A stretch of DNA of 64,000 nucleotides from Clostridia bacterium (GTDB lineage Bacteria > Bacillota > Clostridia > Oscillospirales > SIG627). Below the pieces are notes generated by a model, which worked only from the letters and a program-made list of their open reading frames with translations, was not told the DNA's origin and made no database searches. The translations under genes were made by a program, and so were the position numbers. The stretch is taken from contig JAFUKG010000032.1 of the NCBI GenBank assembly GCA_017467865.1, positions 117,681 through 181,680 on the forward strand, read 5' to 3'. This document shows, in pieces, positions 41,043 to 48,693 of the stretch. Position 1 is the stretch's first letter. The number at the start of each line of letters is the position of its first letter.

Positions 41043-41075
41043 AGTTTCGACGAAATTTTGCGTAAGACGAGGAAA
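41043..41075 (+). repeat. Direct repeat B, copy 1 (agtttcgacgaaattttgcgtaagacgaggaaa)
   Basis: Identical at 32 of 33 positions to 41251..41283. Followed directly by a perfect hairpin at 41071..41100. Confidence 0.75.
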
Positions 41076-41100
41076 AAGAGCCGATAACGGCTCTTTTTCC
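41071..41100. terminator. Orphan terminator-like perfect hairpin
   Basis: ggaaaaagagccg-ataa-cggctctttttcc: a 13-bp stem with A/T runs inside the arms. No adjacent CDS. Confidence 0.45.
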
Positions 41101-41250
41101 TTATACTATCACAGTTTCAAAGTATTTTTTCGTTATGCGAGTGCACGTGAGCGAGGCGAGGAAGGCTTACTAAATGTAAGTCAACGAAGCCGAGTCGAAC
41201 AAGTAGCGAAGCAGAACGGAAAAAGACGAATAACAAATTTACACTATCAC

Positions 41251-41283
41251 AGTTTCGACGAAATTTTGCGTAAGACAAGGAAA
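41251..41283 (+). repeat. Direct repeat B, copy 2 (agtttcgacgaaattttgcgtaagacaaggaaa)
   Basis: See copy 1. Preceded by actatcacagtttc, which also occurs at 41105..41118. aatttctaagaaac occurs at 41027..41040 and 41359..41372. Confidence 0.75.
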
Positions 41284-41287
41284 CAAG

Positions 41288-41335
41288 AAAACCCCGAGGA
41301 AACCTTACTGTCCGTAAGGTGACGACGGGGTTTTT
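41288..41335 (-). terminator. Terminator of the five-gene ABC/HlyD operon
   Basis: Two-tier hairpin: outer stem aaaaccccg/cggggtttt, inner stem ccttac/gtaagg. Lies about 40 nt downstream of the stop at 41375. Confidence 0.6.
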
Positions 41336-41374
41336 GAAGTTGACGAAGTATTACACGAAATTTCTAAGAAACGG

Positions 41375-43816
41375 TTAACTGTTTTCGGCGAGATAAAGGT
41401 TCACCCTACTCTCTATCGTCTTGCAGGTTTCCTCGGCGGATTTCTTGGAGTCGAAGTAGGCGCCGACGTCGGAGGTGATTATGTCGAGGACGGGGTCGTT
41501 GTAGCGGGCAAGACGGGTGGTAGTTGTGGCGATATTATAGATACTGTCGATATATCCGAGCATTCTCTCAAGCTTTTCAGAGGTGAATTCTTCATCCTCG
41601 ACGGGCGCGATTGGTGTTTCGGGCAGTGTTACTACCTTATCAGATGCTACAAGCTCCTCTGAGGTTTCAACAACAACCTCTGCAACCTCTTCACGGGGCA
41701 TAACTACCATATCGTCGTCCATGATGAAGTCATCATCGAAGTATTCATCGTCCTCCATAGCCTCTTTTTCGTAGCGAGACTTAGTACTTGTAATTTCCTT
41801 TTCCTTCATTTCTTCAAAGGCTTCTTTATTTATAGGGAAGGTCCAAGTGTACTCGGTCTGGTATTCCTTGGCGAGAAGCATCTTCATAAAGTCCCAAGCC
41901 TGCTCTTTATAAACAGACTTTGCGCCAATAGCAAACTGAGTATTGAGGTTGAGGGCGTGGGGTTCGCCTTTATTCGTGGGATAGCCGATGCAGACAATCT
42001 CTTCACCGAACTGTTCTTCCTGCCATTCAATAGAATTGAAGCTTGAAAGGTAAACAGAGTTTGCGATAACTCGGTTTTCCTTAAAGTCGTTCTCATATGC
42101 TTCCCAGTCGATATCGTTATAGTAGGTATCGTAGTCAATCTTTGCGGGGAAGGCTTTTGCAAATTCAAGGAAGGACTTAAATGTTCCGTCGGAGAAGTTG
42201 GATTTTCCGTTCTTATAGTCGATATATTCTTCAAGTATCACAGGTAAAAATCCCGTCATAAGCTGTTCGCGGTCTGTCTCTCTCATAAAGACAGCGCCGG
42301 GATAAACAGAAAGGATAGACTTCACGTCGTCAAAGGTAAGAGAGGTCTTATCCCCTACAAGACTCTTCTTTGTAACAAGGCTTCTTACAGCAAAGTTAAC
42401 GGGAAGGCTGTAAATCTTGCCGTTTGTCTCACAAGCCTTCAGAACGTTAGGGAGAAGTGTATCTCTATTTATCTCGTCATCGGAGTCAAGGTAAGCACCG
42501 AGGTCGGCAAATATTCCCTTAGTGGCGTACTTTGTAAGACTGAGTGAGCTGTCAATACAAACAATATCGGGGGTGGCACCAGAAAGAAGGTCGAGGTCAA
42601 AGCGCTCGGTGTCCGCTTCTTCCCAACCGTAAACCTTAACTGCAATTCTGTAATCCTTTGATGAGCGGTTATAGTCGATAATCATGCTCTTAAGCTGAGA
42701 GTCAAGGGCATTTGCTGCAAGGGTGATAATATACTTTTCAACCACCTCGCCCTTTGCGGCGGGGGTAAGGTGAAGAAGCTGACGGCCTTCCCAATCGGCA
42801 TCGTATTCAAAGGTATAGAACTCGTCGTTGCCTGCGGGGTAGAAACTTGAAAGTCTGTCGGAGTTGATATCGGAGTTAATAAAGTCAAGAAGGGGTACTT
42901 CTTCTTTTTTATCGAAATCGTATCTTGATATAGTGCTGTAATCGTTTATGTAAACCGTTCCGTCGTCAGCCATCTGCACGCTGTGGTAGGAGGAGATGGT
43001 GTCAATGGTTTTGAATTCTGCCTTTGAAATAGAGAAGTCGATAATCTCTACCTTGCTTTCCTCTCCCGACCAATCCCAAGCGGAAAGTCTGAGGGTATCG
43101 TCATTAATGAGGGCAACGTCGTTCGGGGATTTATTCTGAGGGAGCTCGGTAAGGCTTAATGGGTTCGCGTCCTTGTCGATAACGAAGATATATTTGTTAC
43201 CGATGAGCATAACGAGCTTTCCGTCGGAGGTTTCGGCAAGCTGACCCATATAGGTGGAATAGCTATCCCCTGCAAACTCGGGGCGTGATTTAAGAAGAGG
43301 GGTGATGCTTATTTCTCTTGAAAAGCTTCCGTCCTCTTCGAGGAGCTTCAAGACAGTATTCTCCTCATAGTTATACTGTTCGGTGTCACTGTCGTACCAG
43401 CTCTTATATTCCGTAAAGGAGAGCCAGAGCTTACCGTTGGCACCTGCGTTATAGCCGTTGAGGTATTTGCCCGTATCGGTGCCTGTTGTCTCGTCGTAGT
43501 TCCACTCACCCTTAAAGGTGTAAAGCTCGCGGATATCTGTCAGGTCGGCGTTGGCAGTATATACGCAATCGTACCAGTCGGAGATTTCGTTGCCGTCATC
43601 ATCGGTGGTTTTAACCTCCTTCGAGCCGTTGAAGAAGGCTCTGTCACCCGACATCATAATATTATAGAGGTCTACACCGTCGGGGGTGGGGAGCTTCTTT
43701 GCCATATAAACGTTTTCAAGTGCTACCTTTTCGGGCTTCTTTTCTTCCTTGGGCCCGCAGGATGCAAGAGCAAAAAGGGTGAAAAGAGCAAGGACAAGGG
43801 TGAGAATTTTTTTCAT
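41375..43816 (-). CDS. Large extracellular solute-binding lipoprotein (ABC substrate-binding domain with an N-terminal extension of about 350 aa and an acidic insert)
   Basis: 813 aa with lipobox LASC. The C-terminal two-thirds resembles family-1 sugar SBPs (..ITLAANALDSQLKSMIIDYN..PDIVCID..). ATGA overlap with the upstream gene. Confidence 0.65.
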   Translation of the reverse strand: MKKILTLVLALFTLFALASCGPKEEKKPEKVALENVYMAKKLPTPDGVDLYNIMMSGDRAFFNGSKEVKTTDDDGNEISDWYDCVYTANADLTDIRELYTFKGEWNYDETTGTDTGKYLNGYNAGANGKLWLSFTEYKSWYDSDTEQYNYEENTVLKLLEEDGSFSREISITPLLKSRPEFAGDSYSTYMGQLAETSDGKLVMLIGNKYIFVIDKDANPLSLTELPQNKSPNDVALINDDTLRLSAWDWSGEESKVEIIDFSISKAEFKTIDTISSYHSVQMADDGTVYINDYSTISRYDFDKKEEVPLLDFINSDINSDRLSSFYPAGNDEFYTFEYDADWEGRQLLHLTPAAKGEVVEKYIITLAANALDSQLKSMIIDYNRSSKDYRIAVKVYGWEEADTERFDLDLLSGATPDIVCIDSSLSLTKYATKGIFADLGAYLDSDDEINRDTLLPNVLKACETNGKIYSLPVNFAVRSLVTKKSLVGDKTSLTFDDVKSILSVYPGAVFMRETDREQLMTGFLPVILEEYIDYKNGKSNFSDGTFKSFLEFAKAFPAKIDYDTYYNDIDWEAYENDFKENRVIANSVYLSSFNSIEWQEEQFGEEIVCIGYPTNKGEPHALNLNTQFAIGAKSVYKEQAWDFMKMLLAKEYQTEYTWTFPINKEAFEEMKEKEITSTKSRYEKEAMEDDEYFDDDFIMDDDMVVMPREEVAEVVVETSEELVASDKVVTLPETPIAPVEDEEFTSEKLERMLGYIDSIYNIATTTTRLARYNDPVLDIITSDVGAYFDSKKSAEETCKTIESRVNLYLAENS

Positions 43817-44721
43817 CTTTTTTTCCTTTCGATAATAAATAGAATAAGGTTTAACACGAAAAATACAAAGCTTACAGCCACAAGGACTTCAAGTATCACA
43901 AGAGTATCCTCTCTTTGTCTGTCGTCATTTTCCCAGAAGGGCAGGGGCTCTTCCTCGGTGATGATAGAGCGGGAGGTAAAGCTTTTTAAATTCGAGAAGG
44001 TATTCTTGAGGCTATATCGGGAGGTGACGTCAATTGCCGTCTTGCCCTCGGTGACCTCTTTCAGAGAATTCAAGGCGTGGGAGTCCACGGGATTCTGCAT
44101 ACATATTTCGTAGTAATCAAAGTCCTTCATGCCGAATATCTTTTCGGCAATATTTTCGGGGATATAAATCATGGGCTTTTCTTCAAGCTGTGCCTTGTAG
44201 GCGTCGCTTTCGTCAAGGGCAACAACGCCTGCAACGTAGCAGGGCGTGCCTGACACGTAGACTCTCATTCCCTCGCAATTACTGCTGCCGAAAAGCTGAA
44301 AGGCAAGTCTTTCGTCGATTACCACTCTGTCAAAATTCAGGTCGGTGTCAGAGTAGTACCAGCCGTGAAGAAAGTCAAGATTATGGAACAAGAACCAATT
44401 TCCACCCGTAACGACGCAGGCACTCTCGGTGCTTTTTCCGTTATCGTTATTGACACTTGCCGTTTCAAAGCGAGAATAGGCGTCGCACCACAGACGCTGT
44501 GTGTCGGGAGTGCTCTCGCTGACGCTGTCGGCGGTGAAGCGAATAGCGCTTATCTCAGCGGAGCTGAAGCCGTCTGGGTCAAAAAGCCTTATAGTGGCGT
44601 AATCCTCACCGAAGGGCGGGATATCCCTCGACTCGCCGATAAAGATAAGAGTCCATGTGAGAAGGACTATAAATATAAGGGCAGAAAGGATAAGCTTAAT
44701 GAGTCCTTTCATATCAATCAC
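43813..44721 (-). CDS. Bitopic membrane protein with a MacB-periplasmic-core-like domain (no FtsX permease domain)
   Basis: 302 aa with N- and C-terminal TM helices. The middle part resembles the MacB_PCD of ABC exporter permeases (..RVVIDERLAFQLFGS..GTPCYVAGVV..). Overlaps the upstream stop by 8 nt. Confidence 0.45.
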   Translation of the reverse strand: MIDMKGLIKLILSALIFIVLLTWTLIFIGESRDIPPFGEDYATIRLFDPDGFSSAEISAIRFTADSVSESTPDTQRLWCDAYSRFETASVNNDNGKSTESACVVTGGNWFLFHNLDFLHGWYYSDTDLNFDRVVIDERLAFQLFGSSNCEGMRVYVSGTPCYVAGVVALDESDAYKAQLEEKPMIYIPENIAEKIFGMKDFDYYEICMQNPVDSHALNSLKEVTEGKTAIDVTSRYSLKNTFSNLKSFTSRSIITEEEPLPFWENDDRQREDTLVILEVLVAVSFVFFVLNLILFIIERKKR

Positions 44722-46783
44722 TCAGCCTTACGTAACCGCCCTCTTCAAAGGGCTTGGTGGATGAGGTGATAACGTACTCGTAAAGATATGCTTCGTCGGT
44801 AGCGATAGCCACGTTCTTATCGTCGCTTGCGGCAACGGTAACGGGAAGTCTGGTTGCAACAAATCTATCTCCGAGAGGTGTGGACTTTGTCTTTGTGATA
44901 TAGATAAACTTGCCCTCTGAGTCCTCGTGGAGTGCGTTCTTGGGGATAACCGCGGAGTAGCCCGTTGTACGCTCACCAACGGTGAGTGTAAGGGTCTGAC
45001 CCGCGTTCACGTTGCCAGATAACTCAAAGGTAAGGGTCTTGGTCTTACCGCCTTGGTCGGGTGTAATCTTTGTAAGAACTGCACCCACGCTTTGACCCCA
45101 ATAGGTATCGGAAACTGTAGCGGTGTCACCTTCCTTGAGTCTGCTTGCCTCGTTCACCGAAACGGAGAAAGAAAGAGTATATCCGCTTTCCACCACCTCT
45201 ACGGTCAGCGCCGCCGCGCCGTCGGTAGCTACCTCGCCGGGTCTGAAGTTAACCTCGGTGACGGTACCGCTTCTCGAAGCCTTCAGCTCATAACCTTCCT
45301 TGGAGCCGCCCTTGATTTCAGCGAGCTCTGCCTTCTTCTTCTGAATTTCTGCATACTCTTTGTTTCTGTCAAAATTTTCAAGCTCTGCCGCCTTTTTGTC
45401 GGCTTCTTTTTTCTTTTCAAGGGCGCGCACTAATTGTTCAAGACTGCGCTCACCCGACTTTATCTCGGCGTCAAGTGTTTTTACTGTGTCCAGCTCAGCA
45501 AGCTTTTCTTCTGCCTCTGCCTTTTCTTCGCCAAGGTCCTCAAGAGCTTTCTTTGAGGTCTTGATAGAAGCTGTCAGCTCCTTGTTGGCGGTTTTTACAA
45601 GCTCTTCCAGTGCTTTTTCGAGCACTTCCAAATCCGCCTCTTCGCTCTCAAGAGCCTTTTCCTTTATGGAAACTGTGTTCTTATAATCGTTGTAGGCTTT
45701 GTTTTCCTTATTAGCCGATGAAATCTCTGCTCTTACAGAGTATATCTCATAGCTGATGTTGTCAACCTCTGTTACCTGTGCAGCGATAGCTCTTTCGGCG
45801 GTCTTTATTTCCTCGGCGTTCTCGTTATAAAGCTTTTCTGCCTCGTCGAAGGCGGTCTGCGCACTGTCGAGAGTCTCCTTTGCCGTCAGAGCCTCGGCGG
45901 AGTCCTCACCGTAGTCTGTTACCGCTTTATCATAGTCGGTCTTAGCTTTGTTGAGGGCGGTTTCTGCCGACTTTTTATCGTCTCTTATTTTAATAAGGTG
46001 TGCATTGTCCTCTTTTAAATAGGAAAGCTCTGTTTTGGCTCTGTCATATGAGTCATAGAGAGAGTCAAGCTGACTGTTGAGTGAGCCCGTGTCGGTCTTA
46101 TTCACCTCAGAAAGTGCCTTTTCCGCCTTTTCAAGGGCTTCCTTTGCTATATCCACACGCTCTTGTGCTTTAGCTACCTTTTCTCTTGCCTCTACTATTT
46201 CGGGGTCGGATGAATTTTCGGAAAGCTCTTCAAGCTCCTCTTCAAGGCTTTCAAGACGCTCGCTTTCCGCCTCGTATGCCTTCTCTTTATCCTCGGCGTT
46301 TTTCTTAATGCCTGCGATATATTCGTCGGTGTACACCGCTCTTTCTGCCTTGATTATATTCAGGTCCTCGGTGGCTATCTTTATCTGATATTCGTCGTCC
46401 TCGTAGTCATACTCTGTTTTAGAGAGAAGGGCTCTGTTGTATGCGTCCTCAAGGGTTGCAATCTCGGCCTCAAGGCTTTCCGCCTTTTCGGAGTCGGTGG
46501 GGCCGAGGAGCATGAGAGTCTGTCCTGCTTCCACCACACTTCCTCTTGACACGTAGACCTCTTCTATCTTGCGGTCTCCCTTGACGGTTTCGGTGTAGGT
46601 AAGGTTTGACACTACCTGACCGCTTCCTCTTACTCCCGTCTTTATTTCACCGTACTCGGTGTATCTGCCCGAAACCTGAGGCAGTGACCAGTTGAGAATG
46701 GTGTTGGAGAAAAAGGTAAGCACAAGCATTACCGCAAGGAATATAATTGCTATATTTTTTATTAAATCTTTTCTTGTCTTCAT
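44714..46783 (-). CDS. HlyD/membrane-fusion-protein-like adaptor with a greatly expanded coiled coil
   Basis: 689 aa. N-terminal TM helix, a lipoyl-like half (..VSRGSVVEAGQTLMLL..), about 395 residues rich in E/K/A/L heptads, then beta-barrel and membrane-proximal domains (..LKASRSGTVTEVNFRPGEVA..). Confidence 0.7.
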   Translation of the reverse strand: MKTRKDLIKNIAIIFLAVMLVLTFFSNTILNWSLPQVSGRYTEYGEIKTGVRGSGQVVSNLTYTETVKGDRKIEEVYVSRGSVVEAGQTLMLLGPTDSEKAESLEAEIATLEDAYNRALLSKTEYDYEDDEYQIKIATEDLNIIKAERAVYTDEYIAGIKKNAEDKEKAYEAESERLESLEEELEELSENSSDPEIVEAREKVAKAQERVDIAKEALEKAEKALSEVNKTDTGSLNSQLDSLYDSYDRAKTELSYLKEDNAHLIKIRDDKKSAETALNKAKTDYDKAVTDYGEDSAEALTAKETLDSAQTAFDEAEKLYNENAEEIKTAERAIAAQVTEVDNISYEIYSVRAEISSANKENKAYNDYKNTVSIKEKALESEEADLEVLEKALEELVKTANKELTASIKTSKKALEDLGEEKAEAEEKLAELDTVKTLDAEIKSGERSLEQLVRALEKKKEADKKAAELENFDRNKEYAEIQKKKAELAEIKGGSKEGYELKASRSGTVTEVNFRPGEVATDGAAALTVEVVESGYTLSFSVSVNEASRLKEGDTATVSDTYWGQSVGAVLTKITPDQGGKTKTLTFELSGNVNAGQTLTLTVGERTTGYSAVIPKNALHEDSEGKFIYITKTKSTPLGDRFVATRLPVTVAASDDKNVAIATDEAYLYEYVITSSTKPFEEGGYVRLSD

Positions 46784-46789
46784 ATTCGT

Positions 46790-47692
46790 TTATCCTTTCA
46801 CACTGCCTTGATAGGTAATTCCTTCCACAAGACTTTCTTCTCCGTGGAGGAAAAGAAGTATGGGGGGTATCATATAAATCGTTGCTACTGCAAAGGCAAC
46901 TCCCACTTCCCCCGTGTTTATCTCGGATAAGAATACCGAGAGTGGCTGAAGCTCGGGGTTGTCAAGGAGTATGAGCACCTGCTCAACCATATTCCAGTTA
47001 TCTATAAAGGTGAGAATTACTACGGAGTAAAGGGCGTTTTTACACATGGGCAGACAGATTTTGCGGAATATCTTAAATTCGCCCGCTCCGTCAAGCCTTG
47101 CCGCTTCAACTGCCGCCACGGGAATGCGCCTCATGCTTTTGGTGAGTATGAACACCGACAGAGGTGCAAAAAGTCCGGGAAGTATTACCGCCCAGCGGGT
47201 GCCTATAATTCCAAGCATATCGGAAACAAGGAAGTTAGGAACCAAGGTAACCTGATAGGGCATAAGCATTATTACGATGTATGCGAAAAATATAACGTTC
47301 TTCACCTTGCCTCGGTATCTGTAAAAGCCGTAGGAGGACAAAGCCGCCAGACACACCTGACCTGCCACAATAGGCAGCGTAAGTATCATAGAATTCCAAA
47401 ACTTCAAGAGATATTCGGGACTCTGAAAAAGTACTGTGAAATACTGTCTGAAGCTTACCATATCGGGTATAAGCTTTAGCTTTACCGACTCCGACATATA
47501 GGAGGAGCCCCCTGACACGTTGCCGAGTACTGCGCCGTAGGTAGAGGTGAGCTCGGTTTCGGACATAAAAGAATTGGTAAATGTGAAAAGCGTGGGCATT
47601 ATGAATATAAATGCAAACATAAGCGCCCATATGAAGAAGAGTGTTATTCTCGTTCTTTTCAGTATCTTTGCACGGCTTATTTTTCTTTTCAT
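46790..47692 (-). CDS. Carbohydrate-type ABC transporter permease (MalG/UgpE-like)
   Basis: 300 aa with six TM segments and the EAA loop EAARLDGAGEFKIFRKICLP. ATGA overlap with the upstream permease gene. Confidence 0.85.
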   Translation of the reverse strand: MKRKISRAKILKRTRITLFFIWALMFAFIFIMPTLFTFTNSFMSETELTSTYGAVLGNVSGGSSYMSESVKLKLIPDMVSFRQYFTVLFQSPEYLLKFWNSMILTLPIVAGQVCLAALSSYGFYRYRGKVKNVIFFAYIVIMLMPYQVTLVPNFLVSDMLGIIGTRWAVILPGLFAPLSVFILTKSMRRIPVAAVEAARLDGAGEFKIFRKICLPMCKNALYSVVILTFIDNWNMVEQVLILLDNPELQPLSVFLSEINTGEVGVAFAVATIYMIPPILLFLHGEESLVEGITYQGSVKG

Positions 47693-48567
47693 TCTTCCAC
47701 ATCCTTTCCGAACTTATCTTCAAGGATAAATATTATACCGATTATCACTATAATGAAAAGCGACATAACAATTGCCGCCGCTGAAAGGCGTGGGTAGTCA
47801 AGATTTTTGAAGGTATTATTCATAAAGTGCTGTAAGAAGTAAAGCGTCTCATAAGGCCACTGACCCGTGAGAAGATAGACCTCACGGAAAATCTTAAAGG
47901 AGTTTATAAGAGATAAAAGTAGCACGAAAAAGAGAGAAGGAGATATGTAGCGGAGTTTTATCTTAAAAAAGCGCTGAAGGGCGTTTGCGCCGTCTACCTC
48001 TGCCGCCTCTACCTGATCCTTGGGGATATTGGAAAGGGCTGCCATAAAAAGTATCATATTGTAGCCGAGATTTTTCCACAAGAAGAGGAGGGCTACAACT
48101 ATCTGACTGTACTCCGACTTCATCCAATCCACGGGCTCAAGTCCGAAAAGCTCGATAAAGGAATTGAAGGAGCCGTTGAAGCTGAACATTACCTGCCATA
48201 TGAGAATAATGGAGGCGGTTGGCACCATAAGGGGACTTAAGAACATAGTTCTGAATTTGCTTTTACCCGGTATCTTGGAGTCAAGGATAACGGCAAGAAT
48301 AAGAGAGAATATAACCGCCGAAAAAACCGTTACCAGTGAAAAGGTGAGAGTGTTCTTTGAGGCGGTGAGAAAGGCAGAGTTCTGAAAGAGTGCCTTGAAG
48401 TTGTCAAGACCCACGAAATTACGGGTGGAAATATTATCAATAAGAGAGTAGTATATAACAAACCCGAAGGGGAGCACGTAGAACACCGAAACACCTATAA
48501 GACCGGGCAGAATATAAAGCCATGAATACGCTCTCTGTCCTATTTTTTTCAGGTCTCTTTTCTTCAA
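47689..48567 (-). CDS. Carbohydrate-type ABC transporter permease (MalF/UgpA-like)
   Basis: EAA loop EAAEVDGANALQRFFKIKL. I prefer the TTG at 48567, which lies about 8 nt after aggagg, over the SD-less GTG at 48588 used by the ORF track. Confidence 0.85.
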   Translation of the reverse strand: MKKRDLKKIGQRAYSWLYILPGLIGVSVFYVLPFGFVIYYSLIDNISTRNFVGLDNFKALFQNSAFLTASKNTLTFSLVTVFSAVIFSLILAVILDSKIPGKSKFRTMFLSPLMVPTASIILIWQVMFSFNGSFNSFIELFGLEPVDWMKSEYSQIVVALLFLWKNLGYNMILFMAALSNIPKDQVEAAEVDGANALQRFFKIKLRYISPSLFFVLLLSLINSFKIFREVYLLTGQWPYETLYFLQHFMNNTFKNLDYPRLSAAAIVMSLFIIVIIGIIFILEDKFGKDVEE

Positions 48568-48693
48568 TTTCCTCTCCTCCTTTTTCACTTTTTTGTTTAG
48601 ACTTAATTTTTCCTGAAAAGTTCCTTAAATTTTCTAAATTAATTATATATTCTCATATGTATTTTTACAATGGTATTAACAAAAAATTAATAA

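Follow-up and report, generated by a model that had tools for sequence, protein, structure and literature searches.

A clostridial operon joining importer-type ABC permeases and a giant binding lipoprotein to MacAB-derived subunits: a possible new ABC architecture of monoderm gut bacteria

The window analysed here is a stretch of 64,000 nucleotides from a Clostridia bacterium (assembly GCA_017467865.1, contig JAFUKG010000032.1, positions 117,681 to 181,680 of the forward strand), and all positions below refer to it unless a locus is named. It carries an operon of five tightly packed genes on the minus strand, encoding two permeases of the ATP-binding cassette (ABC) importer type, a membrane-fusion (periplasmic adaptor) protein, a protein with a MacB-type periplasmic core domain (PCD), and a giant solute-binding lipoprotein (SBP). 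In textbooks, membrane-fusion proteins and the periplasmic domain of MacB are hallmarks of export. In this operon, however, such export-type parts are fixed subunits of an importer-type ABC system, which occurs widely and in abundance among the gut Clostridia of humans and animals. The open reading frame (ORF) scan agrees with the initial annotation on all five genes and their positions (Table 1), the upper end of the operon at 48567 being the likely TTG start of permease 1.

Table 1. Genes of the operon and its flanking signals, in order of transcription
Feature	Position	Strand	Details
Sigma-70-like promoter, TTGTAA-17-TATAAT	48642..48670	-	5' of operon; consensus scan, 10/12 matches; consensus match only
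Permease 1, MalF/UgpA-like, BPD_transp_1	47689..48567	-	292 aa from TTG 48567; 299 aa if GTG 48588
Permease 2, MalG/UgpE/GlcU-like, BPD_transp_1	46790..47692	-	300 aa
MacA/HlyD-type membrane-fusion (periplasmic adaptor) protein	44714..46783	-	689 aa
Split-MacB protein, predicted TM1-PCD-TM2	43813..44712	-	299 aa; 302 aa from GTG 44721
Giant solute-binding lipoprotein (SBP)	41375..43816	-	813 aa
Intrinsic-terminator-like hairpin and U-run	41278..41334	-	3' of last gene; hairpin ~41334-41288; RNA folding

In the scan, the longest frame of permease 1 is 47689..48588, and TTG 48567, just 3' of GGAGGAGAGG, is the likelier start. Read from the sequence, the two permease genes join in an ATGA overlap, a 6-nt gap (ACGAAT) separates permease 2 from the adaptor, and the PCD and SBP genes share a second ATGA overlap, all as initially annotated. 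The 8-nt overlap proposed between the adaptor and PCD genes, however, arises only if GTG 44721 is used; all homologues start at ATG 44712, so that this junction reads TGA-T-ATG. Both flanking signals of the initial annotation were recovered, the promoter-like element by the consensus scan and the terminator by RNA folding. The terminator sequence, AAAACCCCG...CGGGGUUUUCUUGUUU, folds with a dG of -26.8 kcal/mol (z -3.5; as stable in 0/200 shuffles). The preceding gene has its own hairpin terminator at 48725-48694, and the promoter-like site of the operon lies just downstream of it.

According to Pfam and NCBIfam, whose assignments were judged against each model's cut-off, both permeases belong to BPD_transp_1 (3e-17 for permease 1 and 1e-12 for permease 2). 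The NCBIfam matches are UgpA (1.8e-36) for the former, and GlcU (4.8e-25) and UgpE (5.6e-20) for the latter, all three below cut-off. Each permease has an EAA coupling loop, EAAEVDGANALQRFFKIKL (EAAEVDGA...) in permease 1 and EAARLDGAGEFKIFRKICLP (EAARLDGA...) in permease 2, and the operon thus encodes the two EAA-loop BPD_transp_1 subunits that mark carbohydrate uptake transporter 1 (CUT1) importers. Since both loops are canonical, a MalK-type ATPase is required, which in the clade of the window must be encoded elsewhere. Permease identity is 80-96% across the loci of this clade and 53-63% to distant classes.

The last gene provides the extracytoplasmic SBP of the SBP_bac_1/cluster-D sugar type that a CUT1 importer needs. 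Its Pfam SBP_bac_1 match (4e-12) is limited to residues 374-653 of 813, and its PDB sequence match is CbpC (7x0o, 7.5e-10). AlphaFold2 (mean predicted local distance difference test, pLDDT, 82.9) places an all-beta N-domain at residues 37-352 and, at 361-812, an SBP fold with a disordered acidic insert (691-742); together with an invariant lipobox cysteine (Cys20), this agrees with the initial description of a solute-binding lipoprotein with about 350 extra N-terminal residues. Foldseek, run on the whole SBP model and dominated by matches to the SBP fold rather than the N-domain, ranks Clostridium thermocellum CbpC first (6e-15, TMt 0.71), followed by other oligosaccharide SBPs. The N-domain itself has no Pfam family, and its only matches, to designed 'Pizza' propellers and to Reg_prop, are weak and beta-propeller-like, so that it stays without an assignment. 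The likeness of the SBP domain to oligosaccharide-binding proteins and the canonical EAA loops of the permeases together argue for importer character. Within the clade, the SBPs diverge much faster than the permeases (38-85% identity versus 80-96%). Many loci of class A, defined below, carry two tandem paralogues of an 800-870-aa SBP 5' of the permeases (L019:2-5074, L025:796-5994, L038:864-6017, and others; L numbers denote loci).

As for the adaptor, Pfam reports HlyD_3 (1.7e-9; 38.8 bits against a cut-off of 22.2), with HlyD_D23 (residues 449-585) and Biotin_lipoyl_2 (72-91) below cut-off, and NCBIfam reports TIGR01730 RND_mfp (1.7e-12, residues 428-661). Compared with PDB, the family profile finds MacA (4dk1, 4dk0, 5nik_D, and 9qgy_G; 1e-5 to 2e-4) and Spr0693 (5xu0), and the initial HlyD-like assignment is therefore retained. 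The layout would comprise an N-terminal transmembrane (TM) helix, a split lipoyl domain, a helical insert of ~395 residues (96-491), a beta-barrel, and a C-terminal domain. All elements of a membrane-fusion protein (N-terminal TM anchor, split lipoyl domain, alpha-helical hairpin, and beta-barrel) can thus be recognised, the helical part by composition and periodicity, not from a model. Residues 96-491 contain one proline and five glycines and show a 3.5-residue (heptad) periodicity, and the midpoint, G292, falls in an indel-rich zone of the family alignment. These features would fit a helical hairpin with ~195 residues per arm, reaching up to ~25-29 nm if fully extended. In MacA the hairpin insert is roughly 110 residues. 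Membrane-fusion proteins usually assemble as hexamers on an exporter; with an importer-type module as its partner, the present adaptor would differ from every case characterised so far.

The N-terminal TM segment of the adaptor is near-invariant across the family, even at 27-30% overall identity, which points to specific contacts within the membrane. Within residues 1-34 (46690-46783), the invariant positions are K9, I13, F15, L16, L20, L22, T23, F24, F25, S26, T28, I29, N31, S33, and L34; a cytoplasmic/TM segment that merely anchors a protein in the membrane is not usually so conserved. Across clusters, the adaptors measure 527 to 805 aa, and in an alignment of 15 adaptors the variation falls in the helical insert, as though the length of the hairpin were being adjusted.

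The PCD protein matches Pfam MacB_PCD (2.1e-7; 31.9 bits against a cut-off of 27), has no FtsX match in Pfam, and finds YknZ (5f9q, 3e-4) in PDB by sequence. No NCBIfam model matches it. AlphaFold2, run on the 302-aa form with a 33-sequence alignment, gives a pLDDT of 91.7 and predicts a helix at 4-31, an alpha/beta domain at 41-252, and a second helix at 262-301. All 34 significant Foldseek matches of this model in PDB are MacB-type periplasmic domains: YknZ (1e-11, TMt 0.68), MacB, Spr0694-0695, LolC/E, YbbP, HrtB, and YtrF. The MacB_PCD-like domain without FtsX, as first proposed, is thus backed by sequence and structure alike, whereas the description of the protein as bitopic has to be dropped, since the model has two TM helices. 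The protein ends five residues after TM2, with neither TM3-4 nor a cytoplasmic tail; as modelled, it is TM1-PCD-TM2, i.e. MacB minus TM3-4.

The periplasmic core domain between TM1 and TM2 that characterises MacB is therefore present. The four-TM FtsX topology, with TM3-TM4 and a major coupling helix after TM2, is not found, nor is a MacB/LolD/FtsE-type nucleotide-binding domain (NBD), fused or adjacent, the adjacent ATPase of relatives being MalK-type. With both the FtsX topology and the MacB-type NBD absent, the locus falls outside the MacB/type VII family, although its PCD and adaptor proteins clearly derive from a MacAB-type (type VII) system. The only member of the PCD family that has an NCBI name is annotated as 'ABC transporter permease'.

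Close relatives of the PCD-only protein of the window come from only ten species-level genomes, all uncultured metagenome-assembled genomes (MAGs) of Oscillospiraceae, Eubacteriales, or Clostridia. All those with a sufficient contig keep the order permease 1-permease 2-adaptor-PCD-SBP, with differing flanking genes. An exhaustive profile search extends the TM-PCD-TM family to 1136 clusters (50% identity) at E<=1e-3, and to 486 at E<=1e-30. The best 150 clusters are mostly 330-400 aa long, most of them aligned end to end with the profile, and among the matches listed the family spans 300-400 aa with at most a short tail. A metagenome scan yielded at least 442 relatives, and one adaptor cluster at 90% identity has 889 members. 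Eighty metagenome loci were kept, and all loci, clustered at 85% PCD identity, gave 51 locus clusters that stem from gut and anaerobe metagenomes and from Oscillospiraceae/Clostridia MAGs.

Among these 51 clusters, the adaptor gene lies directly 5' of the PCD gene in 49 of 50 cases, permease 2 lies 5' of the adaptor in 33 of 34, and permease 1 lies 5' of permease 2 in 28 of 28. Three layouts were distinguished: A, with an ATPase gene (20 clusters); B, with no adjacent ATPase gene (12); and C, the clade of the window (11). Distant members (27-35% identity) read SBP(1-2)-permease 1-permease 2-adaptor-PCD-ATPase, with the giant lipoprotein gene or genes first and a MalK-type ATPase gene last. In layout C, the SBP gene has moved 3' of the PCD gene, the ATPase gene is missing, and the cytoplasmic tail of the PCD protein is lost; the window belongs to this derived clade.

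The MalK-type ATPase gene (ABC_tran, OB_MalK, and TOBE_2 domains) stands directly 3' of the PCD gene in 20 of the 51 clusters, which places the adaptor and PCD genes inside an importer operon. Comparison of the loci indicates that its absence at the window locus is a derived state. The initial annotation was thus right that the operon lacks an ATPase, but its remark that this is normal for CUT1 importers is incomplete in view of the dedicated gene of these relatives. The operon-encoded ATPases have a disordered, acidic, proline-rich C-tail with a conserved end motif (DPFAEE, DPFAEDS, or DLFTDN). Those at L017:10129-11376, L019:10147-11436, and L021:10123-11370 are 40-60 aa longer than usual. 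The PCD proteins of classes A and B carry a conserved, strongly basic tail right after TM2 (RRxYRxxKxxVPEKVEAAVExRREERLE in loci L017, L019, and L021), and the window clade lacks both the acidic-tailed ATPase gene and this basic tail. Loss of the tail does not strictly track loss of the gene, as class B keeps the tail with no adjacent ATPase.

All five genes are under purifying selection: compared with the L007 orthologues, dN/dS is 0.024 and 0.041 for permeases 1 and 2, 0.065 for the adaptor, 0.135 for the PCD protein, and 0.096 for the SBP. In addition, two independent fusions of the PCD protein with the giant SBP (1131 and 1089 aa; L102:9001-12396 and L103:9001-12270) occur in otherwise normal cassettes of two NCBI assemblies. 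In one of them a true third TM helix stands where the lipobox would be, a topologically consistent arrangement that leaves the SBP on the outer side of the membrane. Such fusions speak for, but do not prove, a physical association of the PCD protein with the SBP. Locus L102 adjoins spoIIAA/AB, sigF, and spoVAA/AB, so its host is a spore-forming Firmicute.

These observations bear on the simplest alternative, that the genes are neighbours by chance, or that a decaying remnant of a MacAB-type exporter lies beside an unrelated sugar importer. The window has neither a MacB-type ATPase nor an FtsX domain, as such a remnant would. The order, however, is kept in 51 clusters with variable flanks, the dN/dS values of the adaptor and PCD genes are low, the model of the PCD fold is of high confidence, PCD-only proteins form a large family even at the stricter threshold, and the relatives show PCD::SBP fusions and an ATPase gene after the PCD gene. 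The probability of this alternative is accordingly close to nil, and conserved order with differing flanks, purifying selection, and the fusions together exclude chance juxtaposition; a pseudogene remnant is likewise ruled out by synteny, selection, and the fusions. The initial annotation had named a gene order conserved in no relative as grounds for assuming chance, whereas the order holds in every related locus long enough to judge. Start/stop overlaps, the location between permease and ATPase genes in relatives, and the fusions further tie the accessory genes to the importer. The adaptor and PCD proteins are thus integral parts of an importer-type ABC system, and the unusual combination of an importer with HlyD-like and MacB-PCD-like proteins stands on profile searches, AlphaFold2, and Foldseek as well as on gene order.

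The reading that we prefer, to which we give a little less than an even chance, is that the five genes encode one multi-subunit ABC system rather than two adjacent ones, namely an SBP-dependent CUT1-like importer carrying a MacAB-derived adaptor/PCD scaffold or conduit. Its core would be a CUT1-like type I importer composed of the two EAA-loop permeases and the lipid-anchored sugar-type SBP, and would draw its energy from a MalK-type ATPase, whose gene is part of the operon in many relatives and would lie at another site of the genome in the organism of the window. Two extracytoplasmic subunits of MacAB origin, the MacB remnant (TM1-PCD-TM2) and the MacA-like adaptor with its enlarged hairpin, would be permanently attached to this core. 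As regards assembly and geometry, the PCD protein may pack onto the permeases as well as onto the anchor of the SBP, and may dock an adaptor oligomer as the PCD of MacB docks MacA; the adaptor hairpins would then project up to ~25-29 nm, roughly the depth of the Gram-positive wall. Such an assembly could hold the SBP, guide a bulky, carbohydrate-like substrate towards the importer, or do both; transport would be inward, by the ordinary SBP-dependent, ATP-driven route.

Several points weigh against this reading. Neither the 64-kb window nor the flanks of the window clade contain a gene for any kind of ABC ATPase. According to a Pfam census of 136 neighbouring ORFs at 35 distinct loci, no glycoside hydrolase or sugar-catabolic family is among the 25 commonest, which is odd for nutrient uptake. 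Full extension of the hairpin is an assumption, and P194 and G233 could act as hinges. Assembly of the complex is deduced from genes and single-chain models, and a MacA-like hexamer of known size is not obviously able to enclose a MalFG-type dimer together with 90-kDa SBPs. Small oligosaccharides should cross peptidoglycan without a conduit.

The main rival, which we consider unlikely, takes the MalFGK2-type module as a motor whose cycle is passed through membrane contacts to TM1-PCD-TM2 and the adaptor, for mechanotransmission or expulsion, i.e. work outside the membrane. The system would then expel or extract a peptide, a lipid-linked glycan, or a lipoprotein, or control a wall enzyme, like MacB, LolCDE, and FtsEX, and the giant SBP would be a substrate donor, acceptor, or sensor rather than a feeder for uptake. 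By fold match, what is left of MacB is precisely TM1-PCD-TM2, and according to MacB structures these are the parts responsible for mechanotransmission in type VII transporters. The basic tail of class A and B PCD proteins directly follows TM2, at the site of the major coupling helix of MacB, and the operon ATPases have their unusual acidic C-tail (DPFAE/DLFTDN). The surroundings of the cassette also suit this reading, with housekeeping and envelope neighbours, no catabolic genes, and OmpR-type two-component systems 5' of several class B loci, and no adaptor protein is otherwise known outside an export system. Nevertheless, TM3-4 and a recognisable coupling helix are missing, and the two EAA loops should occupy both grooves of a MalK dimer. 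Moreover, the window clade has lost the tail entirely, yet all five genes are under purifying selection, the SBP has a typical oligosaccharide-SBP fold, and we know of no type I ABC fold that exports.

A further possibility, which seems to us distinctly improbable, is that of a housekeeping importer that recycles pieces of envelope polymers made by the cell itself (wall glycan, teichoic-acid-like polymer, or capsule), with the adaptor/PCD scaffold reaching into the wall. In many genomes, the genes around the cassette do serve housekeeping and envelope functions (TagA/WecG, SLT, tmk, and mfd in the window; elsewhere GlmS, GH18 with LysM, and an LCP protein). The very strong conservation of the permeases in the clade and beyond, the lack of accompanying catabolic genes, and the UgpA/UgpE-type sub-cut-off matches as the best in NCBIfam are in line with it as well. 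These neighbourhood signals, however, are single cases without enrichment, and SBPs that diverge quickly and are often duplicated suit varied external substrates better than one self-polymer.

Returning to the importer with an attached scaffold, its closest known counterparts are the CUT1 type I importers (MalEFGK2, UgpABCE, LpqY-SugABC, and the MsmK/MsmX-sharing systems of Firmicutes), which likewise have two EAA-loop BPD_transp_1 permeases and a lipoprotein SBP of the SBP_bac_1/oligosaccharide-binding fold, and whose MalK-type ATPase (OB_MalK, TOBE_2) is matched in relatives of the window. In contrast to them, the present system has two extra obligatory membrane-anchored subunits (the adaptor and the PCD protein), an SBP about twice the normal size with a ~320-residue all-beta N-domain and an acidic insert, an acidic disordered C-tail on the operon ATPases of relatives, and, by the neighbour census, no linked regulator or glycoside hydrolase genes. 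As for MacAB-TolC, YknXYZ of Bacillus subtilis, and Spr0693-0695 of Streptococcus pneumoniae, the PCD fold matches YknZ, MacB, and Spr0694-95 best, the adaptor profile matches MacA and Spr0693, and in macAB, too, the adaptor gene is immediately 5' of the gene for the PCD protein. Unlike in these pumps, the PCD protein here is without TM3-4 (the FtsX domain), the coupling helix, and a MacB-type NBD, the partner TM domains and ATPase are importer-type, the hairpin insert is far longer than in MacA, and the host is monoderm, so that there is no outer-membrane partner as in MacAB-TolC.

Two other groups are related more loosely. In Mce/Mla-type ABC lipid importers (Mce1, LetB, and PqiB), helical needles or tunnels bridge the envelope, and the likeness, an importer with a long helical envelope-bridging structure, is in concept only: there are no MCE domains or YrbE/MlaE permeases here, but MacA-type adaptor helices and an SBP-dependent importer. 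FtsEX and LolCDE, which perform type VII mechanotransmission without transmembrane transport, share the PCD fold (LolC/E matches) and offer extramembrane work as a possible role, whereas the present locus has neither the FtsX TM3-4 nor an FtsE/LolD-type ATPase and no sign of a hydrolase or lipoprotein client.

Full-text searches of the literature outside subscription-only sources turned up no adaptor or MacB-PCD protein attached to a BPD-type importer, and within this scope the initial statement that no characterised system combines these parts can be upheld. A 2026 review of bacterial glycoside transporters likewise contains no importer bearing such an adaptor or PCD protein. The transporter family is thus conserved, widespread, and apparently undescribed, and its conserved operon in gut Clostridia suggests that material may cross the thick Gram-positive wall in a novel manner. 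With considerable reserve, we propose that it may represent a new class of ABC architecture of monoderm gut bacteria, in which a type I importer would have captured the extracytoplasmic half of MacAB, forming either a helical, ~20-35-nm wall conduit through which large glycans would be taken up with the help of the SBP, or a device for MalK-driven, MacB-style mechanotransmission on the outer side of the membrane. If the parts cooperate as suggested, the system would reveal the means by which Gram-positive bacteria span a thick wall during uptake, would widen the roles of adaptor proteins beyond export, and would provide a natural split-MacB for dissecting mechanotransmission. The present results also flag a mis-annotation, with a PCD family member named as a permease and the PCD protein lacking an NCBIfam model.

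Regarding the neighbouring genes, the census found mostly housekeeping families; about 5-6 loci have histidine kinases and response regulators of the OmpR type. Several loci of class B (L082:1315-3385, L090:899-2927, and L064:1376-2068) encode a HAMP/HisKA kinase and an OmpR-type regulator directly 5' of the giant SBP gene and in its orientation; two-component genes beside the SBP gene recall the resistance modules of the Bce/MacB type. Single cases, not enriched, include a LysM and GH18 protein directly after the ATPase gene (L021:11467-12744) and GlmS directly 5' of the cassette (L017:384-2228). In Rfam, the 64-kb window stays below the gathering score for every family, those of tRNA, rRNA, and riboswitches included. 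The ~900 nt between the SBP gene and the gene of an XRE-type regulator (40477-41374) contain no ORF longer than 77 aa on either strand and no Rfam match, and the same stretch occurs in metagenome contigs L001 and L002, which are identical.

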